From a virus: 64,000 nucleotides of DNA. The notes beneath the pieces are model-generated. The model saw nothing but the letters and a program-made list of their open reading frames with translations. It did no database searches and had not been told where the DNA came from. Below are positions 100-21,783 of this stretch, piece by piece. Positions within the stretch are counted from its first letter, which is position 1. Each line of letters starts with the position of its first letter. The DNA lies in IMG/VR virus record IMGVR_UViG_3300042564_004498, positions 64,001-128,000 of that record; one strand, 5' to 3'. Made by a program: the position numbers and the translations under genes.

Positions 100-495
100 T
101 TAATCTTCATCAGAAATGAAATCCGAAATTGATGGTTTACTATACCAATTTGAAATCAATCCATTTTCACCAATATGTAAATCAATGTAATCACCGTATT
201 TGCCAGGAAGTAATGCGTTAGGCACATAATCTTCCTCAATTGACAATATAGTATTCCCTTCTGAATCTAAAAGAAAGTATGAACCTTCATCACAAACTTT
301 CATACTCAGATGACCTGTTTCACCTTTAGGCCAATCTATTACTCTACCTTCATCAATGTTAATAACTGCGGACCACATATCACCTTTTCTTAATGGAAAA
401 TTGTTAGGTATGTCTTCTTCATCATACCTTACCGCAACATCAACTTTTACCATTGTAATTTCAACTTCTTTCTCTACTTTAATTTTTACTTTCAT
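100..495 (-). CDS. hypothetical phage protein
   Basis: 131 aa ORF in a tightly packed minus-strand run. Confidence 0.75.
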   Translation of the reverse strand: MKVKIKVEKEVEITMVKVDVAVRYDEEDIPNNFPLRKGDMWSAVINIDEGRVIDWPKGETGHLSMKVCDEGSYFLLDSEGNTILSIEEDYVPNALLPGKYGDYIDLHIGENGLISNWYSKPSISDFISDED

Positions 496-500
496 TTTGA

Positions 501-632
501 TTATTTCTTTTTAACTTTTGGTGTTAATTCTGTTAATGGTTTCCCACATTTAATACATTTCGCAATTTTATCCGTGTCCCAAACCTCATCCATCTTAAAT
601 GTGTGATTACATTCCGATTCTTGTTTCTCCAT
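501..632 (-). CDS. small Cys/His protein (43 aa)
   Basis: Read manually: MEKQESECNHTF..AKCIKCGKPL..; fills the gap between neighbours. Confidence 0.55.
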   Translation of the reverse strand: MEKQESECNHTFKMDEVWDTDKIAKCIKCGKPLTELTPKVKKK

Positions 633-635
633 CTA

Positions 636-1136
636 TTATGATTTTAATATTCGTATCGCTCTGTTGGCACATTCATTTGTTAATCCATAACCTATGTCCA
701 CACAATCAGGGTGATTAATATTATTGGCGGTTCTAACAAAATTCCCTCTTTGGTGTTGTAAGAAATCATTATCATCATCAAAGATAACATATTTTTCCAC
801 TTCAGGATGTTCATCCAACCAATATTCAACTTCGTGACCTCTTTCAATTTGGTCTAAAAATACAAATGAACCTTCGTTAAATAAGTCATTACAATCCGGT
901 GTGATATCAATAACCTCACCAGGTAACCCTCTAAACTCCCACATATCTTTCATTCTCTGTAATCCGCCAAATCTCCAAGTTGAGGATATCACAATTTTTG
1001 CACCTGTTTCTTCGATAACTCTTTTAAGATTATCAACTAAATGTTGATGGAAGGTACCACCATATTCGTCGTGACCTTGAGAATACACATTCAACACTCC
1101 ATCTATATCTAAAAATATAACCTTAATCTTTTCCAT
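636..1136 (-). CDS. HAD-superfamily phosphatase (Swiss-Army-knife RNA-repair-like HAD)
   Basis: FLDIDGVLN motif I, ISSTWR motif II, IFDDD motif IV. Confidence 0.85.
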   Translation of the reverse strand: MEKIKVIFLDIDGVLNVYSQGHDEYGGTFHQHLVDNLKRVIEETGAKIVISSTWRFGGLQRMKDMWEFRGLPGEVIDITPDCNDLFNEGSFVFLDQIERGHEVEYWLDEHPEVEKYVIFDDDNDFLQHQRGNFVRTANNINHPDCVDIGYGLTNECANRAIRILKS

Positions 1137-1419
1137 CTTTTTTAAACTTTAAATATTGTTTATTATGTTCTTCTTCTAATTGGTTAGGAGCAAACTCTTC
1201 CCAATGTTCTACAATTCTTTGAGCACATACTTTGTGTAATTCTTCTAAAAATGCCACACAGTGATGGTCTTCTAAAGCATCAATATATTGATTGGCTTGT
1301 TCTTCGTAGTTTGGTATACTCCATGTTTCACTTGATATAACAGCCTCTTCTAATGTTACATTTATCTCATGTAAAAACACATGAACATATGTACTATTTC
1401 CTAATCTAATTGATTTCAT
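1123..1419 (-). CDS. hypothetical protein
   Basis: 98 aa ORF overlapping the next gene. Confidence 0.65.
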   Translation of the reverse strand: MKSIRLGNSTYVHVFLHEINVTLEEAVISSETWSIPNYEEQANQYIDALEDHHCVAFLEELHKVCAQRIVEHWEEFAPNQLEEEHNKQYLKFKKDGKD

Positions 1420-1546
1420 TTTTCTTCTTTGGTATTTCGTAATTTTCTTCTAACCACTCAAATAATTCGTTGGGTAATATACATGGGTAAAAATCTATAA
1501 AATCAAATAAGATTTCTTCCTAATCGTTTTCATTATTTTCTTCCAT
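1406..1546 (-). pseudogene. small ORF interrupted by an in-frame TAG
   Basis: MEENNEND*EEILFDFIDFYPCILPNELFEWLEENYEIPKKKNEIN*; TAG at 1520-1522; fills the gap between neighbours. Confidence 0.45.
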
Positions 1547-1558
1547 ACAATATGTTTC

Positions 1559-2065
1559 TTAATCTTTATTTAATTGTTCAATAATATATTGAATACCTTT
1601 TTCAGTTAATTTATAACCATCAGGAAATTCACCATGACCGTCACTTACCCTAAATAAATGAATAGGGTTGATTAAACTTAAACCTTTTAGAACTTTGTGT
1701 TGTCGAATCACTCTTTTAGCACCTTCTCTTTTCTCATCGTTGAAAATGTCCTCAATTTTAATTTCTTCTTTTGGATATTGAGCCATTGGTACTTCCATCA
1801 TTAAATCTTCTTTTTCAACTAAATAAGGTCTAGCATGCCATATACATTTTGAGTGGTTTTGACCTGAATTATTTGGGTCAACTTCTCTTCCCATAGGATT
1901 AACCAATACTTCAGTAAACTCAACCTCATCTCCATCATAAACCGCAACACCACTAATCCAAACATAATCAGTCATTGTAACAAAATTTGAATGCAATGGT
2001 AACGCTCCTAAAATATCGTACTGAATGAACCAACTACCGTAAAGTTTTACTAATTTACCTTTCAT
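1559..2065 (-). CDS. hypothetical protein
   Basis: 168 aa ORF. Confidence 0.7.
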   Translation of the reverse strand: MKGKLVKLYGSWFIQYDILGALPLHSNFVTMTDYVWISGVAVYDGDEVEFTEVLVNPMGREVDPNNSGQNHSKCIWHARPYLVEKEDLMMEVPMAQYPKEEIKIEDIFNDEKREGAKRVIRQHKVLKGLSLINPIHLFRVSDGHGEFPDGYKLTEKGIQYIIEQLNKD

Positions 2066-2068
2066 AAT

Positions 2069-2278
2069 CTATTTGTTTTTTAATTGTTCAAACCAATTTT
2101 TTACGTCACTTGGAAGTACATAAGGACACCTAATTAATAATTTTAATACTTCTTCCTTACTATAACTTCTTTCTTGTTGAGAAAATAAACTTGGTAGTAT
2201 TTCATTAACTAATATTTCAACATCAATTGAGTTACCTTTATTGTAACCCCACTTTGCTAGTTCTGTTATAAAGTCCAT
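2069..2278 (-). CDS. hypothetical protein
   Basis: 69 aa ORF with 3-nt spacing to neighbours. Confidence 0.65.
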   Translation of the reverse strand: MDFITELAKWGYNKGNSIDVEILVNEILPSLFSQQERSYSKEEVLKLLIRCPYVLPSDVKNWFEQLKNK

Positions 2279-2281
2279 ATC

Positions 2282-2515
2282 TTATTTCTTTTTAAATTTA
2301 AAAATCTTGTCTAATCCGACCCCTAAATAAATAAGAATAAGATATGCAGGAGGAGACAAAATCAAAGAAGTAAGAAGTACAACTGGAGATACAGGTGTAA
2401 ATTGATGCCCCGTAATACTATATGATATCAAATCAATAATAGTTATTATTAATCCTAAAATTAATGTACCCATGAAACCGATTGCCGTAATTATTGTTGC
2501 GATTCTTTCAAACAT
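2282..2515 (-). CDS. small two-TM membrane protein
   Basis: Two hydrophobic stretches; TATCTTTG promoter on the minus strand at about 2537-2544. Confidence 0.65.
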   Translation of the reverse strand: MFERIATIITAIGFMGTLILGLIITIIDLISYSITGHQFTPVSPVVLLTSLILSPPAYLILIYLGVGLDKIFKFKKK

Positions 2516-2576
2516 AACTCATCTTTTTATTAAGTACAAAGATAACATTATTATTTGTCCTAACCAAATATTTTAT

Positions 2577-2584
2577 TATCTTTG
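2577..2584 (+). promoter_or_regulatory. Bacteroidota-type -7 element TAnnTTTG (representative copy)
   Basis: TATCTTTG preceded by TTTG about 20 nt upstream. Also at 3669 and 5530 (+), and on the minus strand near 13770, 15190, 18227, 19262, 19397, 19535, 19842, 33800, 46708, 47242, 54380 and 54918, always upstream of starts. Confidence 0.8.
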
Positions 2585-2588
2585 TCGT

Positions 2589-3092
2589 ATGATATTAGAC
2601 CTTACAAAATACAGCATTGAAGACCTTGTTTCTTTAAAAAATGAAATCAACAATCATTTACACTTTTATGTGGATGGATATCTTTATATTTGTAATGTTC
2701 GTTCATATGGACGACAATGGAAACAGAATGTTAATAACTTACATTCCCTTCAAGAACTTTGTAACCAATACGATGGTTATGATGGTATTGTGGATATCTA
2801 TTCCACAAACCCAAACCTTTCTGAGATTGAGAACTACGGCAATGTAATGTACATTGTCTCTGAGGAAGATTATGAGAAATGGAAACAATATGATTATCTT
2901 ACCTCCACAGTTAGTGATATCAATCATAAGTTGGATGTATGGGAAAGCCGTGAACAAATGTCATTCCGAGACCGACCGACCTTTGCTCCGTATTATAATC
3001 GTGAGGAACTTGCAGGTCTTAAGAAAGAGATTGTTGAATATGATATGTCTTTTGTTGCTCCTGTTAGTGTAAAGAGAGTATATGAGGAGTAA
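2589..3092 (+). CDS. hypothetical protein
   Basis: Start reassigned to ATG 2589 (MILDLTK), 4 nt after TATCTTTG. Confidence 0.7.
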   Translation: MILDLTKYSIEDLVSLKNEINNHLHFYVDGYLYICNVRSYGRQWKQNVNNLHSLQELCNQYDGYDGIVDIYSTNPNLSEIENYGNVMYIVSEEDYEKWKQYDYLTSTVSDINHKLDVWESREQMSFRDRPTFAPYYNREELAGLKKEIVEYDMSFVAPVSVKRVYEE

Positions 3093-3097
3093 AAAAG

Positions 3098-3147
3098 ATT
3101 ATTACCAAAATGTGTAATAATCTCCATTATTACCAAAATGTGTAATA
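3098..3147. repeat. 22-nt direct repeat x2 with internal palindrome
   Basis: ATTATTACCAAAATGTGTAATA at 3098 and 3126; TATTAC..GTAATA inverted arms. Confidence 0.85.
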
Positions 3148-3222
3148 CCTCATCAAAAACTAATTTTTACACAACACTTTATTATAACTTTCACACAAAA
3201 CAATATTACCTTTCATGGTAAG

Positions 3223-3248
3223 ATAAACCTCATAATTTGGGGTTTATC
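3223..3248. terminator. hairpin between convergent genes
   Basis: GATAAACCTCA-taat-TTGGGGTTTATC. Confidence 0.5.
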
Positions 3249-3618
3249 TTGTGATGATTGGTAATGTATTATCACAGTTTTTTACTTTTTTAACATAAAT
3301 GTCTGTTGGTTCCCCGACATAACTATAAACTAATTGCCAAATCTCATCAATTATATCATCATACATTTTACGGTCAGCTTGTGTCACAGGAAAATATTTG
3401 GTCCCATGGCCACCAATAACTTTAACATCTATTCTGTAATGTGAGAATCCAAATTCTTGATTTGATGCCAATTCCCTGTTGTGTGGTGCAATAACTTTCA
3501 CACCACAAACAATTCCATCATGTGAGGGTAAAAAATTTGTTTCCAATAACTTGGTTATCATTGGAGATAAATCTTTCTCTGTTTCTTCTTTTATTATTCG
3601 TCTAATAAGTTCTCTCAT
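3244..3618 (-). CDS. hypothetical protein with N-terminal 'LIRRIIKEE' tag
   Basis: 124 aa; TATTTAT 5 nt upstream of ATG. Confidence 0.75.
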   Translation of the reverse strand: MRELIRRIIKEETEKDLSPMITKLLETNFLPSHDGIVCGVKVIAPHNRELASNQEFGFSHYRIDVKVIGGHGTKYFPVTQADRKMYDDIIDEIWQLVYSYVGEPTDIYVKKVKNCDNTLPIITR

Positions 3619-3681
3619 CCATTATAAATACCTTAACGCACCTATTTGTCAAATTGATTTTAATTATCTATCTTTGTAAAT

Positions 3682-4065
3682 ATGACCTCAGAGCTCCTGA
3701 TATTAAATAAATACATGAAGAAACTATTTCCATTTATTTTGGAAGTGGATAGTGTTTATGTTGGTGAGGAACTATATGACCCGTATACATTTAGCCCCAC
3801 AATTAACCATAGTAGTAGTGGTACCTCCCGAAGAGATAAAAACTTATTAAAAATTAACATTTATGTTTCCCCTCTCCATTTCTGTGAACTTATGGATGAT
3901 AGGGTTGAGAAGAAGATTGTTAACCACATAATTGATAATTGTTCTTCTTTACTTAAATCAGTTGTTACTTCTTGGGATGGTAATAAACCACGAATCTTAT
4001 TCTTCCCATCTGTGGGTGAAAAATCAACTATTCTTGAGGGTTTAGAATGGATAGAACAAAATTGA
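3682..4065 (+). CDS. hypothetical protein
   Basis: 127 aa; TATCTTTG 5 nt upstream. Confidence 0.7.
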   Translation: MTSELLILNKYMKKLFPFILEVDSVYVGEELYDPYTFSPTINHSSSGTSRRDKNLLKINIYVSPLHFCELMDDRVEKKIVNHIIDNCSSLLKSVVTSWDGNKPRILFFPSVGEKSTILEGLEWIEQN

Positions 4066-4079
4066 ATCAACCAACTAAC

Positions 4080-4086
4080 TATTTAT
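4080..4086 (+). promoter_or_regulatory. TATTTAT motif, putative phage-specific (late) promoter (representative copy)
   Basis: TATTTAT 4-5 nt before the ATG at 4091, 5837, 15533, 20021, 29352, 36521 (+) and 3618, 11346, 57839 (-); 12-16 nt before 23222, 28439, 35533, 41319. Confidence 0.65.
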
Positions 4087-4090
4087 TATT

Positions 4091-4792
4091 ATGATAAAAG
4101 ACAAATTAACTATTGTAATTCCTGCAAAAAATGAAGCCGATGTAATTGATATTACTTTATCTCATCTTAACAACCAATACGGTATTAAAGGTACTCGTGT
4201 AATCGTTGCAGATTGTTCTGACGATATGACTGTAAACATTGTATTATCAGGAAAGTATAAAAACTTAAACCTTGAAGTTATTGATGGTGGTCTTCCAAGT
4301 GTTGCAAGAAATAATGGAGCTAAACTAGTTAAAACCGATTATGTTTTGTTTTTGGACGCCGACATATTCTTAACTGATAGACACACAATCTATGAAACAC
4401 TTAGAATTACTCAAAACAATCGTCTTCATTTAGTTACAACCAAATTTAGAGTTAAAGGGGTATACTCATTCATTTTTCCTGTGTTTGAATTTTTTAGAAA
4501 CTTAATCGCGTCAAAAGCGCCATGTGCTATTGGAGGTTATATGTTGTTTAAACTATCAGAATTTAATAAAGTTGGTGGATTTGTTAATGAAGATAAATTT
4601 GGTGAGGATTTCCATCTTAGTATGAAGATAGACCCTCGTCGTTTCTCAGTTGCTCCACATAAAATATACACAACCGATAGAAGATTCAGAAATAAAGGAT
4701 TGTTGTATATGATGAAGATGGCATTCTTAGGTTACATAAACAGAAATAACGATAACTTCTTTAGAAATGACCACAACTACTGGAAAATATAA
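4091..4792 (+). CDS. glycosyltransferase family 2
   Basis: IVIPAKNE, VAD.SDD, ARNNGA, FLDAD (DxD), GED motifs. Confidence 0.9.
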   Translation: MIKDKLTIVIPAKNEADVIDITLSHLNNQYGIKGTRVIVADCSDDMTVNIVLSGKYKNLNLEVIDGGLPSVARNNGAKLVKTDYVLFLDADIFLTDRHTIYETLRITQNNRLHLVTTKFRVKGVYSFIFPVFEFFRNLIASKAPCAIGGYMLFKLSEFNKVGGFVNEDKFGEDFHLSMKIDPRRFSVAPHKIYTTDRRFRNKGLLYMMKMAFLGYINRNNDNFFRNDHNYWKI

Positions 4793-5510
4793 ATGTGTAA
4801 TCCTTTCCGATTTACATTTGGGAATGGCAGATTGTAAACCTAAAAAGATTCTTAAGTTCCTTGAATCCATAAAGACAGAGACGTTAATCCTGAATGGTGA
4901 TATAATTGATATCGACGCTCTTCGTCGTGGTTCCAAGTGGAAAGGTAAACACATGAAAGTTGTTATCAAACTATTGGAGATGTCCAAAGATACAGAGATT
5001 ATCTATATCAGAGGGAATCATGATAATGATGTTAAGGATTTATACCATACATTTCTTGGTAATATTAAATTTGTGGAAGATTATATCTATACCGTTAACG
5101 ATAAAAAGTATTTTATATTTCATGGTGATAGGATAGATGTTACAACCAAATATAAATTACTTACTCAAATTGGTTCCATAGGTTATGACTTCGCCCTTAG
5201 ACTTAATACTTGGTATAACAAATACCGAGAACTCACAGGAAAACCATACTACAGTATCTCTAAAATCATTAAAGAAAACTTTAAGAAAGCATTATCGTTC
5301 ATTAATGACTTTGAAGTTAATGCTTGTGATTACGCTAAAACCCTTAATTGTGATGGCGTAATCTGTGGACACATCCATATCCCATCTGTTAAAGTGATTA
5401 ACGGTATTGAATATTACAACTCAGGTGATTGGGTTGAGAACTTCTCCGCACTTGTTTTAACAAAAAATAATAAGTGGGAATTAAAGGTTTTTGAGTACCC
5501 AAATTCATAG
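4767..5510 (+). CDS. calcineurin-like metallophosphoesterase (UDP-2,3-diacylglucosamine hydrolase-like)
   Basis: SDLHLG, GDIID, GNHD, HGD, CGHIH, NSGDWVE motifs. Confidence 0.9.
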   Translation: MTTTTGKYKCVILSDLHLGMADCKPKKILKFLESIKTETLILNGDIIDIDALRRGSKWKGKHMKVVIKLLEMSKDTEIIYIRGNHDNDVKDLYHTFLGNIKFVEDYIYTVNDKKYFIFHGDRIDVTTKYKLLTQIGSIGYDFALRLNTWYNKYRELTGKPYYSISKIIKENFKKALSFINDFEVNACDYAKTLNCDGVICGHIHIPSVKVINGIEYYNSGDWVENFSALVLTKNNKWELKVFEYPNS

Positions 5511-5542
5511 ATAATTTATTCTATTATCGTATCTTTGTATCT

Positions 5543-5806
5543 ATGACAACAATAGAAAAACACGTAGTTAAATTCATTGAGGATAAATTCGCATTCCCAT
5601 ACCTTTATTACGATAAAGTGGAACAAACATGGGCAAATGAATTCTTTTTATTCGATATTAAATCAGGTACAATGTATGTTAGTGATGAGGTTAAAGACTC
5701 CTTGTATAAAAAATATGGTAAAGGATATATTTCTCAGGTTCTCCTTAAAGTCGTTGACGCTTGGTTCTTCAAAACTTATAAATTGACAGTTAATACAATT
5801 GAATAG
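5543..5806 (+). CDS. hypothetical protein related to the downstream paralog array (no N-terminal tag)
   Basis: C-terminal WFFKTYKLTV motif; host-type promoter upstream. Confidence 0.7.
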   Translation: MTTIEKHVVKFIEDKFAFPYLYYDKVEQTWANEFFLFDIKSGTMYVSDEVKDSLYKKYGKGYISQVLLKVVDAWFFKTYKLTVNTIE

Positions 5807-5836
5807 ATTAGTTGTATTACATTATATTTATAAAAT

Positions 5837-6115
5837 ATGAATAAGTACATTATAACTGAACAGCAGAATGACAAATTGATGGAATTGATGAAAAAATTTG
5901 CCAATCAATATATTGAAGAACGAGTAATTCAAACTGATGTTGAAATTGAATATTCAAATGAAAAAGGTGCTTATATTCTATATCCTGTTTTTTATGTTAA
6001 AAATAAAGAAAATTTCCCACATCATATTTATAAACATATTTTAGCACAACGAGTTGAAGATATGTTTGGTGTTCCTGTTCATTCCTCATCCGCACGAGTT
6101 AAAGTAATTGATTAA
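5837..6115 (+). CDS. MKYIITE-family protein
   Basis: MNKYIITEQQ; C-terminal EDMFGVPV. Confidence 0.8.
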   Translation: MNKYIITEQQNDKLMELMKKFANQYIEERVIQTDVEIEYSNEKGAYILYPVFYVKNKENFPHHIYKHILAQRVEDMFGVPVHSSSARVKVID

Positions 6116-6120
6116 AACAT

Positions 6121-6999
6121 ATGAGATATATTATAACTGAATCACAATATCAAAAATTACAAGAACAACGAGTTAAAGGTGAAGAAATTACACCAGGAAA
6201 ATATGTTGTTCATACTTCTAACCCTTTAAATAGAGATAACATTTCTACCACAGGTCTTCAAGTATCTTTGGGTGAATGTTATTTAATTTATGCCGATAGT
6301 AATTACGGTGAAGATGAAGAATGTGTTCCCGCAGTATTTGCCACAAATAGTATAAAGAAAAAAGATATGTTTGATTCAACATATGATGATGACATATGGA
6401 TTATTGATACAGAAATCGCGGGAGTCCAATGGTATAAAGACGCTCATTTTGAGGGTGGTGATACTAAACATATTGTTACCTTTGAAGATATCCCTGTCGA
6501 AGCAATTAAATTAGTTCAGGAAGGAACAGGTGGAGACACTTGGAATCACCATAATGATGAAACTGAGTTAACATTAACAGAAATGATTAAGTTAGATATC
6601 AAAGTTGGTGACACTCTAATGGGCGGAAAATTTAAGAATAAAAAAATTGTTGTTAAGACAATAGATAAGAATGATAAAGGTGATATAACAATCAATGGTA
6701 AACCTCTTTTAAGATTTAGGATATTAAAAGAAGATAAGTATCGATTACTTAGAAGAGAAGGTGATATGAAACATAGAATTGATAATCAACTTATGATGTC
6801 TAAACTTCAAAATGATTTATATTTTGTACCGTTAGAACATTTAATTTTACACATTGCAGATAATGTAGCAATTGAGATGTCTAACGAATCTAACTTAGGT
6901 GATGATGAGTATATCACATTCAGGAATCAAATAAAACAATATATTCGTAATAACTTTTATGAACATATTAAAAAGTTTTGGGAATCAAATCAATTATGA
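6121..6999 (+). CDS. MKYIITE-family multidomain protein with ART/Tpt1-like domain
   Basis: MRYIITESQY; VHTS..I..TGL..AVFAT..IPVEAIKLV pattern. Confidence 0.7.
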   Translation: MRYIITESQYQKLQEQRVKGEEITPGKYVVHTSNPLNRDNISTTGLQVSLGECYLIYADSNYGEDEECVPAVFATNSIKKKDMFDSTYDDDIWIIDTEIAGVQWYKDAHFEGGDTKHIVTFEDIPVEAIKLVQEGTGGDTWNHHNDETELTLTEMIKLDIKVGDTLMGGKFKNKKIVVKTIDKNDKGDITINGKPLLRFRILKEDKYRLLRREGDMKHRIDNQLMMSKLQNDLYFVPLEHLILHIADNVAIEMSNESNLGDDEYITFRNQIKQYIRNNFYEHIKKFWESNQL

Positions 7000-7370
7000 A
7001 ATACGTAATACCTGAAAACAGGATGAAAAATCTTGTTATAAATTATTTGGATAGTATTGATTGGAGGATTTTAGAATCAACCGATGAATCATATCCTCTT
7101 GAGGTATATGAACATACTACGGATAAAGGTCCAACATTTATAGTAAATTGTTTTAAATATAAGTTTGGAGAAACCTGTAATTTACTAATTAGTTCACTTT
7201 TTCACAAAAAGTTAATAAGTCTGTTTGGTAAAGAGACTGTTAGTGGCGGTGAAGATGGTGAACCAAATGTTTTAATTATGGATTGGTTTAACGAATACTT
7301 TAAAACTAATGTTCACGATTATCGATATGTAGATAGCGATAACTACGCAATAAATAATGATGAATATTAG
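6996..7370 (+). CDS. MKYIITE-family protein
   Basis: Start reassigned to MKYVIPENRM (ATGA overlap); DWFNEYF..V. Confidence 0.8.
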   Translation: MKYVIPENRMKNLVINYLDSIDWRILESTDESYPLEVYEHTTDKGPTFIVNCFKYKFGETCNLLISSLFHKKLISLFGKETVSGGEDGEPNVLIMDWFNEYFKTNVHDYRYVDSDNYAINNDEY

Positions 7371-7371
7371 T

Positions 7372-7683
7372 ATGAAATATATTATAACAGAAAGTAGATT
7401 GAATGGTATCGCCAATACATGGTTGGATGATAGATATGGCGATTTACGAAAGCGTAAATTCCAAGGTTACCCAAATGATGAGTTTTTATCAACAAATGAG
7501 GGAATGTTCTTCATGAATTATCATAAAAACACTAAAATCATTGAGGTTAAACATAAAATCTCCGATGAACTTGAGGATATGTTTGGTTTTGACCAACAAA
7601 TGTCTCGTGAAATACTGATACCTTGGGTAGAAAATAAGTATGGTTACAAAATTAAACGAATGGTATTTCATACTGATGTGTAA
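7372..7683 (+). CDS. MKYIITE-family protein
   Basis: MKYIITESRL; WVENKYGYKI. Confidence 0.8.
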   Translation: MKYIITESRLNGIANTWLDDRYGDLRKRKFQGYPNDEFLSTNEGMFFMNYHKNTKIIEVKHKISDELEDMFGFDQQMSREILIPWVENKYGYKIKRMVFHTDV

Positions 7684-15924: not shown

Positions 15925-16776
15925 ATGAGCGAAAAATTACAAAGACTATCAATAAAAATGGCGGAATTATTCCCCAAAGATGCTTCATCACCTCAAGTAT
16001 ATTATGATTTATTTAAAGACATATACAAACAACAAAAAGACTATTTTTTTAATTTTGACCCATCAGATATTATTAAATTAATATTCTACATATACTCTTA
16101 CAACAAAACAAATAATTTTAAGTTAGCCGATTTAATGTTAAACAAAATAGGGTTTGCTAGTTTATTTATAACTCAAGGAGATAATTACCTTGAAACTTGT
16201 TCAGATTGTGGTGGTAATGGTGAAGTGGATTGTAGTAGTTGTGACGGGTCAGGGGAAGTAGAATGTGATGAATGTTATGGTACAGGAGAAGTAGAATGTG
16301 ATGAATGTCTTGGTAGTGGGGTAGATAGCAATAACCCAGAAGAACAATGTTCTGAATGTAATGGTTCAGGTGTTAGAACATGTGGTTCATGTCACGGAGA
16401 TGCTGAGTTAGATTGTGACAATTGTAATGACGGAAAAGAACTTTGTTATAGTTGTGATTCAACAGGTGAGATTGAAACCGATAAATTATTATATGACTAT
16501 TATGTTATTTGTACTTGGGACACATTTATTAAGGACCGATGTGAATTAAGAGCTGAGACCCTTGAACCAGCTTTATCTGAATATGATTTTGATAGATTAA
16601 GAGACGATTTTATTGTATTAGGATATCAAGAATCTTATCAAAGATTTATTGACGGAATACAAACTAACGAAGTTTATTGTTCCAACTATAGTGATGAACC
16701 AGAATTACATAAAAGTTATTCATCAGATTATAAAATTTGGATGGATGATAGTGATATGATACGATACGAAGGATAA
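15925..16776 (+). CDS. protein with expanded DnaJ-type CxxCxGxG zinc-finger repeats
   Basis: Eight CxxC motifs; no J-domain HPD. Confidence 0.8.
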   Translation: MSEKLQRLSIKMAELFPKDASSPQVYYDLFKDIYKQQKDYFFNFDPSDIIKLIFYIYSYNKTNNFKLADLMLNKIGFASLFITQGDNYLETCSDCGGNGEVDCSSCDGSGEVECDECYGTGEVECDECLGSGVDSNNPEEQCSECNGSGVRTCGSCHGDAELDCDNCNDGKELCYSCDSTGEIETDKLLYDYYVICTWDTFIKDRCELRAETLEPALSEYDFDRLRDDFIVLGYQESYQRFIDGIQTNEVYCSNYSDEPELHKSYSSDYKIWMDDSDMIRYEG

Positions 16777-16778
16777 TT

Positions 16779-17276
16779 ATGAGTAATATAAAAACATTTT
16801 TAAAAGTCTTAAATAAAGTTGGTTACCCAAATCCTGACTTAGATTCTATTTTCAGAATGGTAGATTACGACTTATATGATTTATTACCTGACTTAGTTAA
16901 TGAGGTTGGTGAAGATGGTGCCAATGACTTTATTGAAAGGGCTATAAGTAAAGTTTATAATGGTGGTAAAGGAATTAGAGTTACCGTTAATGATGGAGAC
17001 TATGGTGAATATGCATACATTAAACTTGAAAACCCTCATGTTTCTTTAGAGAATGACGACACAACAGTACTTTCAAGATGGAGTTGGGGAGAAACTAAAT
17101 TATTAACCTCAGACGAGGATGGTAATGAAATTTACAAAACCATGGACCAAATATCTGAAGAGACTGACATGGGAGATTGGGGAGAATATGAAGAACTTGT
17201 TGAATACATAAAAACTCAATGTAATGATTTTATGTATAGAAATTGTGGGTTTGGCATTTGGTGGGATGAACAATAA
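16779..17276 (+). CDS. hypothetical acidic protein
   Basis: 165 aa ORF. Confidence 0.75.
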   Translation: MSNIKTFLKVLNKVGYPNPDLDSIFRMVDYDLYDLLPDLVNEVGEDGANDFIERAISKVYNGGKGIRVTVNDGDYGEYAYIKLENPHVSLENDDTTVLSRWSWGETKLLTSDEDGNEIYKTMDQISEETDMGDWGEYEELVEYIKTQCNDFMYRNCGFGIWWDEQ

Positions 17277-17301
17277 AAAAGAGAGACCGAAGTCTCTCTT
17301 T
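17275..17301. terminator. bidirectional intrinsic terminator
   Basis: AAAAAAGAGAGAC-cgaa-GTCTCTCTTT between convergent genes. Confidence 0.85.
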
Positions 17302-17340
17302 AGGGCCGTACCGTTTTAGTACAGATTCCACCACCAAGTT

Positions 17341-17637
17341 TTATCTAACTTGGAAATCATTATCTCTAAAAATTTGATTCACTAATTCTTCTAATCTTTT
17401 ACCCGACATGTAACCAGCAACCTCTCCATCATCAGGACAAAAGAAATTAGTCATAAATTCACCCGTTTCCAAATTAATAATTGCTAATTCAAATGTATTA
17501 ATAAAATCCCCATATAATCCTTGACAACCACCTACAATAGAAAACTTAATAACATCGTTACTAATAACCGTAATTCGCCCTTTCTCTCTTACAGGATGTT
17601 GTTTTGACCAATCAATTATATTTTGAATTGTTATCAT
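17341..17637 (-). CDS. hypothetical protein
   Basis: 98 aa, GLYGD..TFELAI. Confidence 0.7.
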   Translation of the reverse strand: MITIQNIIDWSKQHPVREKGRITVISNDVIKFSIVGGCQGLYGDFINTFELAIINLETGEFMTNFFCPDDGEVAGYMSGKRLEELVNQIFRDNDFQVR

Positions 17638-17927
17638 TTTTGATTTCTAATTTGTTTTAACTTAACCTCTAATAAATCAATATTAAATCTGTCGTTTTTA
17701 CTTTTGTTTGGTTTATTTCGTAACTCCTTAATAAGCTCAATAACAGTTTCTTCCTCTGTTTTTTCTTTAACTTCCTCCTTAATCACATCCAAAGGAATGA
17801 TTGGTTCAGGAATATTTTTTTTGATTTGTTTGTTAGCATGACTCTCACCAAGTTTATATGCTCCGTATAGAAGAGCTCCCGCTCCTGCGATTTTAAGGAT
17901 TCCTCCTAATAATGTGTCTCTACTCAT
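17634..17927 (-). CDS. hypothetical protein with N-terminal TM
   Basis: 97 aa, ATGA overlaps. Confidence 0.7.
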   Translation of the reverse strand: MSRDTLLGGILKIAGAGALLYGAYKLGESHANKQIKKNIPEPIIPLDVIKEEVKEKTEEETVIELIKELRNKPNKSKNDRFNIDLLEVKLKQIRNQK

Positions 17928-18205
17928 TTTGTTTCTAACGCCTCCATTTTAGATTTATTAATAAGATGTTCTGCCAGTGTGTAATTATCAACATTAGTTG
18001 TGATAATTGAATTAACCAAGTGTTTGTGAGGAACATGAACTAAAAAATCAGTTCCGTTAAAGAATGTTAAATCATTCTTAAGTTCAATACAACCTTGAAC
18101 CATTTTCAAAAACAGTTTGAATTGAGTCGCGTTTACAAATGTTTCGCTCAAAAGTACACCGAATGTTTCGTGTTGAATCTTAATGTTATGTGAGTTCATG
18201 TTCAT
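17924..18205 (-). CDS. hypothetical protein
   Basis: 93 aa; host-type promoter upstream. Confidence 0.7.
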   Translation of the reverse strand: MNMNSHNIKIQHETFGVLLSETFVNATQFKLFLKMVQGCIELKNDLTFFNGTDFLVHVPHKHLVNSIITTNVDNYTLAEHLINKSKMEALETK

Positions 18206-18264
18206 ATCCCTTTGTTTAGATTACAAAGATAAACATTATTTCTTTAGTAAAAAAATAATTAAAC

Positions 18265-18298
18265 AAAAAAAGGTGTTACATCACTGTAACACCTTCTT
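18265..18298 (-). terminator. intrinsic terminator ending the large ncRNA
   Basis: AAGGTGTTACA-gtga-TGTAACACCTT followed by a T run. Confidence 0.85.
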
Positions 18299-18299
18299 G

Positions 18300-19165
18300 G
18301 CTAATACGATGAGAATACTCGTCTTATTGAGAATCTTTAGAAGGATTATTGTTTCCCTTCGTTTCCACTATCTTTTGGATAGTAATCCTCATTGCCGATT
18401 AGTTAGACTAATCACTCCTTAAGGTAATAACCACTCTCTTACTACTCTACTCTCTTCAACCTTGCGAGCTAACTCAGGATTCGACTCCTTAGAGGTTTTT
18501 GGTAAAAATACGATTGAACTTGGGATTCTTTCGTGCCACGGACCGCCCGTGACTGTGTAGGCAACTTTCGTTATCACCTGACGAACACTTTTCCGTTTTT
18601 CTGTTAGTTTTTCACCTATTGAAAAGTTTGGTTTGTGTTGTGGATGAGTCCAAGTAGAGGTCCGTCTTAGGCTTCGTTATCTTTTGAACAACAAAATACC
18701 TGTCTACTCGGTGAGATATCCCTATCTCCATATTTTAAGATTACTTCAAACGAACACCTTGGTAGATGTTTTGTAAGGTTAGTAGCGACACCACTCGTTC
18801 TCTAACTTACCTTTCGGTTTTAAGTCCCCTCTCATATTGGAGTCCGCAATAATATTGTTGGAACAATATTTTTTGCTTGACCCCTGTGACTTATTCTTAT
18901 TGTTTTTCCAAACTCAGTTCAGGAACCCACATTCCCAAACCATCCAACCACTTTCCCTAAAGCGTCGCCCTCAATACTCAAGGTCGGATGATATGTCACT
19001 TGTATACTCGAGTTCCATTTCTGAAACCGCAATCCTGTTAACACAACAGGTTCACTTTATCCCCCTTTCGAGGTTTATTTGACGACCATATACAGCCGAT
19101 TATCGTTTATTAAATTAGTCTCAATGTCAACCCGAAGGTCTTGATATCAACATCTAAATGGATAA
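18300..19165 (-). ncRNA. GOLLD-like large structured RNA (~870 nt)
   Basis: GC-elevated, no credible ORF, GNRA/UUCG hairpins (CCUC-GAAA-GGGG, ACC-GAAA-GGU, GACC-UUCG-GGUU, CUC-GCAA-GG). The 3' part GAGUAG..AGAGUGGUU..GUGGAAACGAAGGGAAACAAUAAUCCUUC..GUAUUCUCA resembles the GOLLD 3' domain as I recall it; next to tRNAs; ends approximate. Confidence 0.8.
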
Positions 19166-19170
19166 TAATA

Positions 19171-19183
19171 TTTTCAAAGAACG
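19171..19183 (-). promoter_or_regulatory. boxA-like antitermination motif
   Basis: CGTTCTTTGAAAA just before the large RNA; second copy AGTTCTTTAAAA at 19762-19773 before the tRNAs. Confidence 0.6.
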
Positions 19184-19590
19184 TAATTCATATTAATGAA
19201 GGAAAGGTCAACCTTACCGAAGTGGGATTTTAACCCTTCCTTCATTTCAATTGTTTTACAAAGGTAGATGAAAGTTTTGACACTGTCAAATTTTTATAAA
19301 ACTTTTTTCTAACAATCTTACTCTGTTACTACCGATAGTGAGATTTGATTTCGGTGATTGTTAAAGACCAAATAGTGTTACCCGTTTGGTTTACAAAGAT
19401 AAGAAAGTTTTTTTGAACTGTCAAATCTTTTTTTAGAAATTTTGTGTTTATTTTTTTAATGACCAAAGTCAAAAACCATATTTTATAACACACCCTCTTT
19501 CATGGTCTTGGGGTTATCTCCAATTGTTTTACAAAGATATGAATAACTTTTCAATTAATCAAACACTTTTTAAAACTTTTTTTTAATTAG

Positions 19591-19663
19591 TAGCGGGAGA
19601 AGGACTCGAACCTCCGACCTTATGGTTATGAGCCACACGAGCTGCCAACTGCTCTATCCCACG
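19591..19663 (-). tRNA. tRNA-Met(CAU), initiator-like; CCA not encoded
   Basis: Full cloverleaf CGTGGGATAGAGCAGTTGGCAGCTCGTGTGGCTCATAACCATAAGGTCGGAGGTTCGAGTCCTTCTCCCGCTA; C1:U72 mismatch. Confidence 0.9.
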
Positions 19664-19677
19664 ATGTTTGTTGTTAG

Positions 19678-19750
19678 TTGCGTAGGGCCGGAAACGAACC
19701 GACTTGGACTGGCTTATGAGACCAGTGAGATACCTTACCTCCCCCTCGCG
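19678..19750 (-). tRNA. atypical tRNA(CAU) or tRNA-like RNA
   Basis: Anticodon arm CTGGT-CTCATAA-GCCAG; T arm GTCGG-TTCGTTT-CCGGC; C1:A72 mismatch; bulged acceptor stem. Confidence 0.7.
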
Positions 19751-20020
19751 ATATATCATTATTTTAAAGAACTTCAGATAAAAAATCCCACAAGCTACAA
19801 GGGTTTTCTCAAACTCACACTTGCGGGATTTGTTTCACAAAGATAGGAAAGTTTTTTTGAACTGTCAAATCTTTTTTTAACCGCGAAACATTTTCTGGGG
19901 TGTTTGTCCTTTCGGACATGAACATATAAATATGTCCTTTTTTTTAAAAATACAATAATATTATTGAAATGTCAAATAAAAATTCAAATACTATTATGTT
20001 TTCTAAAGTATTTATTTGAT

Positions 20021-20374
20021 ATGAAGGTAAGAATTAACGATAACAGTTTTAATGTAAAAACATTAATTGATAGAGAATCCCAATCAATTGGGATGATGGG
20101 TAAAGCATTTGATGGAACTTTTAATGGATTGTTATTCTTAATGGATGGTAAGAAACAATGTTTTTGGATGAAGGGTTGTGTAATTCCATTAGACATAATC
20201 ATTATAAAGAACAATGTGATTGTAAATATACATCACGATTGTCCTCCATGTAATAATGAATTTGATTGTCCTTCCTATTGTGGAAACGGTAATATTGTAT
20301 TAGAACTTGAGGGTGGTTCTTGTGAAATCCTCAACATTCAACCGGGTGATAGTATCACTTACGACTTATCTTAA
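20021..20374 (+). CDS. DUF192 family protein
   Basis: GMMG..GLLF..FWMK..IPLDII..VLELEGG..IQPGD; start reassigned to 20021. Confidence 0.85.
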   Translation: MKVRINDNSFNVKTLIDRESQSIGMMGKAFDGTFNGLLFLMDGKKQCFWMKGCVIPLDIIIIKNNVIVNIHHDCPPCNNEFDCPSYCGNGNIVLELEGGSCEILNIQPGDSITYDLS

Positions 20375-21783
20375 TCCTCCGAAGAATTTTTAGACTCCTC
20401 AATTTTTTTCTTTAATACTTTTTGAAATTCAGTAGCAATCATTTTTGTAAACTTAACTGATGGTGAATCATCTTTCTCAGAATCATACTTATACTTACCT
20501 TGTGGTGGTCTTTTACCTCTACCTAAATAATTAAGTCCTGAGATATTGGTAATACATTTGTGACCACCAGAATTAGACTGAATTAAATCCCAAGCATTAA
20601 TACCAATTTTATCCATCAATTCAAGTTCTTGTTCAGATAATTCATTGAATGGTTTTTCCATCATTCTTTCAATTTTTCCTAAGGCTTCTTCTCCACCGTC
20701 CATGAATACAAATTTTCCACCGTAAAGAGCGTCAAAGTCTTTAAAAGTAAAACCAACACTTTCAGGTCCAGCACTTGTTTCACTAACCCATTTCATAGTT
20801 GACAAAGGAATTTTCCTATCCTTTAATTGAGATTCCCATCTAACCAAAACTTCTTGAGCTATCTCCCCAAGATTAACCCCTTTAAGTTCTCTTTCTTTTT
20901 TAAACGGATTACAAGATGCTTGAACAAGACCCATCGGCCAAGCCATGATAAGAAAATCCGCCTCAGGATTATTTCTGAATGGTGTATATCTGTCGTAAGA
21001 CCCAGGCTTAAACATACTACCCCCACCGTATTGAAAAATAATGTTATCAGACACTGTTGGATAGTCTGCCATTTTGTCTGCATAATCTTGTGCATTTTTT
21101 TGTAAGTCTTCAGGTTTGGCGGCATTTGTTTTTGTCATCCAAGCTCTAATGTTATTTAGTATAGACAATAAAGAAGGTTCAGAATCCATAACCAATCCTT
21201 CTAAAAATCCTGGTTTGTTTTTAAAAGCTAAAAGTAATTTGTTTATTACTAAACCTAATAACATTTTATTCTTTTGTAATGAAGAGTCTTTATCTATTCT
21301 GTAGATATAATTAACCACTTCTTTTGGTGTAATATCATGTTTTGCATAATCCGCAGAATCCACGGTATTAATCAATAATATATCAGATGATGGGAATAAA
21401 TCTGTTGGTGAAACTACTTGAGAAATAGTCTCAACATTTGAACGAGCCCCTCTAAATTGTTTGGAGGTACCCTTTTCAACACCAACTTGTTTATCGTGAT
21501 GGTCTGTGTGAATCACAAACATTGGTTTACCATGAGCAAAATCTACTAGAACAGGCATTGTATCCCCTTGAGCGTCATTCTTTTTAACCGAGAACTCCTT
21601 ATCACCATATTGTATAATATGGGCACCAACAACATCAATACCGTTGTCTTCAAGGTATTTTTTCATCGCAATCGCTGTTGTTACCCCATCAAGGTCTTGG
21701 TGAAAATAAATCTCAGCTTTTTGATATCTTTTCTTTAAGGCGTTGATATTTCTCAACCCTGATTCTGATATAATTCTTTTCAT
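20371..21783 (-). CDS. DHH/DHHA1-family phosphoesterase with N-terminal tag
   Basis: HQDLDG, VLVD, TDHH, GGH; N-terminus MKRIISES. Confidence 0.8.
   Translation of the reverse strand: MKRIISESGLRNINALKKRYQKAEIYFHQDLDGVTTAIAMKKYLEDNGIDVVGAHIIQYGDKEFSVKKNDAQGDTMPVLVDFAHGKPMFVIHTDHHDKQVGVEKGTSKQFRGARSNVETISQVVSPTDLFPSSDILLINTVDSADYAKHDITPKEVVNYIYRIDKDSSLQKNKMLLGLVINKLLLAFKNKPGFLEGLVMDSEPSLLSILNNIRAWMTKTNAAKPEDLQKNAQDYADKMADYPTVSDNIIFQYGGGSMFKPGSYDRYTPFRNNPEADFLIMAWPMGLVQASCNPFKKERELKGVNLGEIAQEVLVRWESQLKDRKIPLSTMKWVSETSAGPESVGFTFKDFDALYGGKFVFMDGGEEALGKIERMMEKPFNELSEQELELMDKIGINAWDLIQSNSGGHKCITNISGLNYLGRGKRPPQGKYKYDSEKDDSPSVKFTKMIATEFQKVLKKKIEESKNSSED

Follow-up and report, generated by a model that had tools for sequence, protein, structure and literature searches.

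The window, by which we mean the whole 64-kb stretch of viral DNA analysed here, carries on its minus strand a gene for the giant RNA GOLLD, with a pair of tRNA-Met genes upstream. GOLLD and these two tRNAs are all that exceeds the Rfam cut-offs in the window, and the Rfam model finds one copy only of GOLLD in the 145,525-bp record to which the window belongs. The family model RF02032 scores 323.2 bits on 18711..18306 (-), where 150 is the gathering threshold (E 8.8e-92), and the match comprises the entire model, 1-416 of 416, with posterior values near 1. The initial annotation had proposed a structured non-coding RNA of the GOLLD kind at 18265-19165. The structured RNA is real, its strand, which that annotation omitted, is minus, and the family assignment is sustained by cmsearch with the Rfam model, whose score is more than twice the curated cut-off over the whole model. 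A check against rival large-RNA models brought up no competitor: ROOL and all other Rfam families, searched as covariance models over the 64-kb window, are without a match at the GOLLD stretch, and the interval 18700-20100 holds no credible further Rfam match even at E up to 5. Sequence analysis could hardly place the RNA in GOLLD more firmly. The likeness is closest to env-38, a GOLLD from a marine metagenome that was resolved by cryo-EM as a homo-14-mer with D7 symmetry (PDB 9MEE; Kretsch et al. 2025, PMC12286853). The features of the locus, with the evidence for each, are listed below in their order along the minus strand.

19869-19838, 19563-19532 and 19425-19394 (-): three more stacked promoters, upstream of the one next to GOLLD (motif scan)
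19762..19772 (-): second boxA-like word GTTCTTTAAAA, after a hairpin at 19831-19780 and before the tRNA pair
19749-19679 and 19663-19590 (-): tRNA-Met(CAU) pair (Rfam tRNA model, ARAGORN)
19259..19290 (-): predicted promoter, TTTG (-33), about 20 nt, TACCTTTG (-7) (sequence and composite motif scan)
19195..19246 (-): 5' leader hairpin with a 17-bp stem (fold -24.2 kcal/mol, z = -5.0)
19171..19182 (-): boxA-like word GTTCTTTGAAAA, following the leader hairpin and preceding GOLLD
19101..19170 (-): 5' extension with a UUCG-capped hairpin at 19140-19129 (alignment A2, fold)
19100-18306 (-): GOLLD core, 795 nt, env-38-equivalent
18712..19100 (-): GOLLD 5' domain (cap domain in env-38), outside the Rfam model (covariation, env-38 alignment by eye)
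18306..18711 (-): GOLLD 3' domain (Rfam RF02032, model 1-416)
18650..18711 (-): first 3'-domain hairpin, UCAAAAG loop (Rfam alignment, covariation)
18580..18649 (-): variable A-rich linker J13/15, 70 nt, 46% A (Rfam structure line)
18476..18490 (-): L21a-equivalent hairpin, loop GUCGAA (position and env-38 sequence)
18456..18472 (-): L21b-equivalent hairpin, loop CGCAAG (Rfam alignment, position)
18260..18298 (-): intrinsic terminator, 14-bp stem, 4-nt loop, seven U (fold z = -4.2)

The helix numbers used throughout (P13/P14 for 18650..18711, L21a and L21b) were deduced from the text of the published papers together with the sequence. The core is placed at 19100-18306 because the first bases of env-38 align with window position 19100, and transcription is predicted to start near 19252. 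The 991 nt from this predicted start to the terminator (19252..18262) fold more stably than all shuffled versions, with z = -4.3. The span first proposed, 18265-19165, needs to be revised at one end: it does include the terminator, the core at 19100-18306 and the clade-specific 5' hairpin, and it leaves outside the promoter, the leader hairpin and the boxA-like word, at 19290-19171. Its length of ~870 nt gives way to two values, ~795 nt for a core of the published type and ~990 nt for the predicted primary transcript from promoter to terminator. The sharp terminator that had been claimed is indeed found, as a 14-bp hairpin at 18298-18267 followed by a U run, and so are the stable tetraloop hairpins, since GAAA and UUCG loops are both present and conserved in the GOLLD stretch, one of them in an invariant CCUC-GAAA-GGGG hairpin at 19073-19062 within the 5' domain.

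The tRNA-Met pair lies 490-580 nt upstream of the GOLLD core on the same strand, and the association with phage and tRNA that had been noted for this RNA holds, the record being an IMG/VR viral one with two tRNA-Met genes upstream. The first of the two (19679-19749) scores 30.3 bits against a tRNA cut-off of 29 and may be a non-standard tRNA. Two small elements were also observed in this upstream region. The first, at 19780-19831 (-), is a 13-bp hairpin followed by six U (z = -4.3), situated right after the most upstream promoter and ahead of the boxA-like word and the tRNA pair, an arrangement that resembles a terminator or attenuator ahead of an antitermination signal. The second, at 19310-19363 (-), is a conserved small RNA element of ~54 nt between two stacked promoters; its 8-bp outer stem shows compensatory changes, and its inner CCGA/UCGG hairpin closes an invariant loop of 15 nt. 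This element is common to three related phages (L011:3222-3292, L033:2634-2704 and L023:994-1064), and other relatives have different small units in its place; none of the upstream small RNA units, the 19310-19363 element included, has a match in Rfam.

Predicted expression signals and the probable host of the phage

The Bacteroidota sigma-A promoter has the form TTTG at -33 and TAnnTTTG at -7, and most of the 34 relatives described below show the same layout as the window immediately ahead of GOLLD. The sequence of the leader hairpin varies, relatives having a shorter hairpin at the same place, and the boxA-like word before GOLLD is kept in nearly all of them. In the E. coli rrn operons, boxA (UGCUCUUUAACAA) is bound by NusB-S10. 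An 11-mer identical to the GOLLD-leader word, GTTCTTTGAAA, is situated ~115 nt upstream of the 16S gene in a Chitinophagaceae MAG (L098), where it stands behind two TAnnTTTG promoters, and Pedobacter (L099) carries the boxA variant GTTCTTAAAAG twice; the comparison of rRNA leaders covered these two genomes. Because the 11-mer of the Chitinophagaceae 16S leader is identical and the Pedobacter word a close variant, an rRNA-style boxA antitermination leader is, by analogy, a reasonable reading of the region ahead of GOLLD. Such a word also stands 15-22 nt ahead of tRNA genes, both in the window (19772-19762) and, as ACGTTCTTTAACAT in other phages, in the tRNA arrays of several unrelated ones (L005, L017, L019 and L037). 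At the other end of the gene, the terminator stem (hairpin 18298-18267) shows compensatory changes in the two closest relatives (L011 and L033), and in several more relatives it is the final GOLLD hairpin that a T run follows.

The record is an IMG/VR viral contig of 145.5 kb that CheckV judges 48% complete, from which a phage of roughly 300 kb can be estimated; the designation as a jumbo phage in the initial annotation rests on this estimate. Few of its genes belong to a known family (an SbcC-like nuclease, a DNA methylase, a peptidoglycan-binding protein, a DUF192 protein and a virion protein). Cultured relatives were sought by tblastn: the 856-aa virion protein had no match, and the SbcC-like protein had matches of 22-28% only, mostly in uncultured megaphages, with no close cultured phage among them. 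The T4-type capsid family Gp23 has no match in the phage, and none in the control genomes either, which makes this negative uninformative.

A Bacteroidota host is inferred from the sequence signals of the phage itself. Composite promoter sites number 27 genome-wide, against 11.4 +/- 3.7 expected (~2.4-fold); 18 of the 27 are intergenic, intergenic DNA being 13% of the genome, and 10 are located 5-26 nt before an ORF. A Shine-Dalgarno core precedes 11 of 197 ORFs, and sites of the sigma-70 type show no enrichment. The label "Bacteroidota-type" given earlier is consequently supported in an indirect manner, by the enriched promoter motif, the scarcity of Shine-Dalgarno sites and a boxA word that recurs unchanged in a Chitinophagaceae rRNA leader. 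A route to the host through GOLLD copies in genomes was tried and set aside. The exact 5'-domain motif has 0 matches in a prophage search of 185,579 species genomes, and a degenerate 3' motif has 59 genome matches, about the number expected by chance, of which nhmmer confirmed 5: three Mycobacterium, one 1.6-kb contig binned with Cyanobium and one Saprospiraceae MAG, the last a partial match at a contig end and below the Rfam cut-off. These five give no usable host link.

The alternative is that the host is not a member of the Bacteroidota, the TTTG/TAnnTTTG signal and the boxA-like word being the phage's own or those of another AT-rich lineage. It is favoured by the searches, which found no host genome, prophage copy or cultured relative, and by the close GOLLD relative on the 1.6-kb contig binned with a Cyanobium MAG, a contig that is weak evidence for a host. 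We consider it improbable, since the composite promoter is not only enriched but gathered in the intergenic DNA that immediately precedes ORFs, hardly any ORF has a Shine-Dalgarno core, sigma-70 type sites are unenriched, and the boxA 11-mer recurs without change in a Chitinophagaceae rRNA leader behind two promoters of this very form. The apparent Bacteroidota host would add to the settings of GOLLD, which in the literature covered here are predominantly Lactobacillales and mycobacteria.

Conservation among relatives and abundance in lakes

The exact 23-nt 5'-domain motif AACCTCGAAAGRGGGATAAAGTG was found in 34 IMG/VR contigs. In 32 of them the GOLLD match extends over most of the RNA at 67-80% identity, and the other two are cut at a contig end. 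Two uncultured megaphages, LR756502.1 (642 kb) and LR745206.1 (635 kb), carry the motif as well; they were reached by a distant blastn of the stretch against phage records, in which their matches extend far into the 5' half of GOLLD, and each has a full Rfam GOLLD beside tRNAs. The tRNA-like genes that flank GOLLD in these two records could not be assigned by ARAGORN, which reports two-base "anticodons".

The structure was evaluated on an alignment of 16 representative sequences (A2), with the consensus derived by RNAalifold. This consensus has 192 pairs, of which 118 show compensatory changes, and pairing is kept in 97%. Both halves of the RNA contribute: the 5' domain has 99 pairs, 97.2% paired and 61 of them compensatory, and the 3' domain 92 pairs, 97.7% paired and 57 compensatory. 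When partners are slid by one to three columns, 35-45% are paired and 8-19 compensatory (10-17 for the 3' domain), a comparison that is flattered because the structure came from the same alignment and in which the margin is still large. These data indicate that the GOLLD helices are under purifying selection.

Members of the freshwater clade share the ~70-nt 5' extension at 19170-19101 in conserved form. The hairpin at 18818-18809 is here a bare GAAA tetraloop, at a place where seven close relatives have a hairpin insertion of ~14 nt. The linker J13/15 is poorly conserved among relatives, and ARAGORN found no tRNA embedded in it (18580..18649). The loop of the L21a-equivalent hairpin, GUCGAA, includes a self-complementary CG dinucleotide, and this position is CG or GC in 16/16 relatives. 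According to the cryo-EM study of env-38, L21a is GC in some GOLLDs and CG in others, an alternation in favour of a symmetric kissing loop, the inter-shell bridge B8 (PMC12286853). A separate observation concerns columns 812-848 of A2, where the loops CGCAAG and CUCGGCAG of neighbouring hairpins are swapped between sister clades of the tRNA-array type (L005 and L037 versus L017, L019 and L007), which would be surprising if pairing across the cage equator joined only loops of the same kind. In one clade, the loop GUGGG (18926-18930) and the linker flank UCCAC (18640-18644) covary to GUAGG and UCUAC, a possible long-range or inter-subunit contact that consists of a single event. We do not put forward the pairing of 18930-18926 with 18644-18640 as a structural element, given that it is a single change in one clade and could not be recognised in env-38.

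The genomic setting of GOLLD varies among the relatives. In five other representatives of A2 it lies within arrays of 22-26 tRNAs, many relatives are without a tRNA inside the flanks that were fetched, and a tRNA-Met is present upstream in the two closest relatives and in one megaphage. Beyond these, a cultured 106-kb Acinetobacter phage, vB_AciJM_313 (PX050566.1), carries an unannotated GOLLD (L004:2352-3336), with the 3' domain at L004:2760-3143 (207 bits), between the tRNA-Gln and tRNA-Pro of an array. This phage is a tractable system for GOLLD genetics.

GOLLD is made as an abundant RNA in lakes. A 2-kb stretch of the locus turns up in no fewer than 18 metagenome runs from lake water and in six metatranscriptome runs from fresh water. 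For RNA depth, contigs of four lake metatranscriptome runs (2017 and 2025) were placed on 16500-21000 in bins of 150 nt. RNA contigs with 98.9-100% identity over 180-370 nt extend across 18331-19108, and the word depth over 18312-19066 is 350-7500 in the four runs, compared with 0-5 on the neighbouring protein genes, contig depth being a crude measure to which closely related sister strains contribute part of the signal. The upstream region of small RNAs and tRNAs has a depth of 4-7, and of 211 in one run. Since the silent flanks were measured alongside, DNA carry-over cannot explain the depth on GOLLD. The initial annotation had allowed for the case that no transcript is made, and the near-identical contigs, with their very high depth over the GOLLD stretch, dispose of it. 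The RNA contigs end at 18318-18357, some with adapter beyond, short of the terminator, and at 19080/19108 they continue into the 5' hairpin of a relative (L012-like); contigs cannot define ends, so the uncovered terminator is no evidence of processing.

Proposed cage assembly and competing explanations

We propose that the locus is a complete GOLLD gene of the env-38 type, a reading to which we assign a probability of roughly 0.8. Very few natural RNAs are known to form a cage free of protein, and GOLLD is one of them; its cages have been seen by cryo-EM (PMC12286853; PMC12990946), with a stoichiometry that varies between 10, 12 and 14 (PMC12990946), and they form at 12.5 nM (PMC12286853). The life of the RNA can be hypothesised in three steps. 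In the first, which we regard as probable, the host RNA polymerase would start at the Bacteroidota consensus promoter 19290-19259, read the leader hairpin and the boxA-like word, and stop at the hairpin 18298-18267, with the stacked promoters further upstream adding read-through. By analogy, the boxA-like word would probably recruit NusB and S10, the host's antitermination factors of the rRNA type. In the second step, on which we place the same good measure of confidence, two domains would form in the ~800-nt core, the 5' cap and the 3' ring, connected through the A-rich linker, and, in the manner described for other GOLLDs, the RNA may self-assemble without protein into a closed dihedral cage with the linker pointing inward. 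A 14-mer similar to that of env-38 is the most likely outcome, because the RNA has the size of env-38, its 5' domain and both of its loops, L21a and L21b. It should be added that the missing hairpin insertion at 18818-18809, or the added 5' hairpin, could alter the geometry of the cap.

The third step concerns function and is doubtful. During infection the cage might act on the machinery of translation, for instance by retaining or protecting tRNAs or ribosomal particles, which would fit because the mode of expression is rRNA-like and the gene is placed beside phage tRNAs. Tentative, too, is the idea that the GOLLD of the freshwater clade is a stand-alone gene wired into the host's rRNA expression system and not a passenger of a tRNA array. 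If this were true, the termination-resistant and folding-assisting transcription complex that the host uses for its rRNA would make and fold the cage RNA, and the task of GOLLD would be tied to the translation apparatus. The boxA leader suggests a route by which GOLLD RNA may be produced, an idea that is testable.

A different view of the same gene is that the RNA, a true GOLLD, is present in the cell as a monomer or small oligomer, acting as a protein-bound scaffold or as a decoy for host RNases, defence sensors or ribosomal proteins, and that the cage is a property of the in vitro preparation. The ribosome pull-downs cited in PMC12286853 are compatible with such a role, as is the change in oligomer number with the construct (PMC12990946). 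This view has a small chance of being correct in our opinion, given that the inter-subunit contacts are conserved, that the switch between CG and GC in the palindromic L21a is sensible only for pairing between two copies (PMC12286853), and that the cages form at a concentration in the nanomolar range (PMC12286853). That the stretch is instead a new class of large RNA merely resembling GOLLD, or a decayed GOLLD remnant, might be argued from the 5' half, for which Rfam has no model. This is refuted by the alignment of the whole 416-position model with posteriors near 1, and the 5' half matches the 5' domain of env-38, the helices bear the marks of purifying selection and the RNA is abundant, so that practically no credence is left to it. 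The same negligible credence attaches to the coding of small proteins: an 81-aa and a 79-aa ORF do exist on the plus strand, with no ORF above 81 aa in 18200-19300, but no ORF inside the GOLLD stretch has a Pfam match even at E 0.1; the lengths of relatives differ by non-multiples of 3, the open stretch being down to 51-67 aa in most; and the substitutions are pair-compensatory.

Comparison with known systems

The leader of the locus has the appearance of an rrn operon leader, in that stacked host-type promoters, a hairpin and GUUCUUUGAAAA are followed by genes for stable RNAs (tRNAs and GOLLD); it differs in being phage-borne and in driving a non-ribosomal RNA. Among large RNAs, ROOL is phage- and tRNA-associated and forms an octameric RNA-only cage with an internal disordered linker (PMC12286853; PMC12990946). 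The RNA of the window shares with it the large size, the association with phages and tRNAs, the relation to RNA-only cages and the internal linker, whereas sequence and fold are unrelated and no Rfam ROOL match exists in the window.

The GOLLD of Streptococcus agalactiae (Sag) is 700 nt long and forms a 12-mer (PDB 9L0R), its 3' domain alone giving mainly a 10-mer, and it is without P9, P11a-c and P21b (PMC12990946). It belongs to the same family and has the same 3'-domain core as the RNA described here, but is ~100 nt shorter and lacks the helices just mentioned. The window RNA is closer to env-38 than to Sag, because it has kept the two hairpins L21a and L21b and a 5' domain similar to that of env-38.

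The env-38 RNA is 833 nt long, with residues 1-420 forming the cap and 421-833 the ring of each half-shell; its linker, 497-538, is disordered and inside the cage, and its gene is downstream of a Met-tRNA (PMC12286853). Its construct sequence, as printed with the paper, was compared by eye. In this qualitative comparison the 5' domain of the window RNA aligns block by block with env-38 residues 1 to ~420. Both RNAs consist of two domains (with a core of ~795 nt here and a construct of 833 nt for env-38), both have the full 3' domain, the A-rich linker and the L21a and L21b hairpins, and both are downstream of a tRNA-Met. The differences are also well defined. L21a is of the CG form here (GUCGAA) and of the GC form in env-38 (CGCAAG); env-38 has the hairpin GGGGAAACCCC where the window has the bare GAAA tetraloop at 18818-18809; the ~70-nt 5' extension is absent from the env-38 construct; and the window gene is equipped with a predicted promoter of its own, followed by leader hairpin and boxA-like word, and with a separate terminator. 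The window RNA, moreover, comes from a freshwater phage known from sequence, whereas env-38 comes from a marine sample and has a solved structure. This copy is a good specimen of a known class of giant RNA and not a new class. It leaves the picture of GOLLD unchanged and provides a clean example with defined control elements and an architecture like that of env-38, in which natural differences such as the CG form of L21a, the shortened hairpin and the extra 5' hairpin offer a test of which contacts set the size of the cage, with ~35 natural relatives available for mutate-and-rescue designs.
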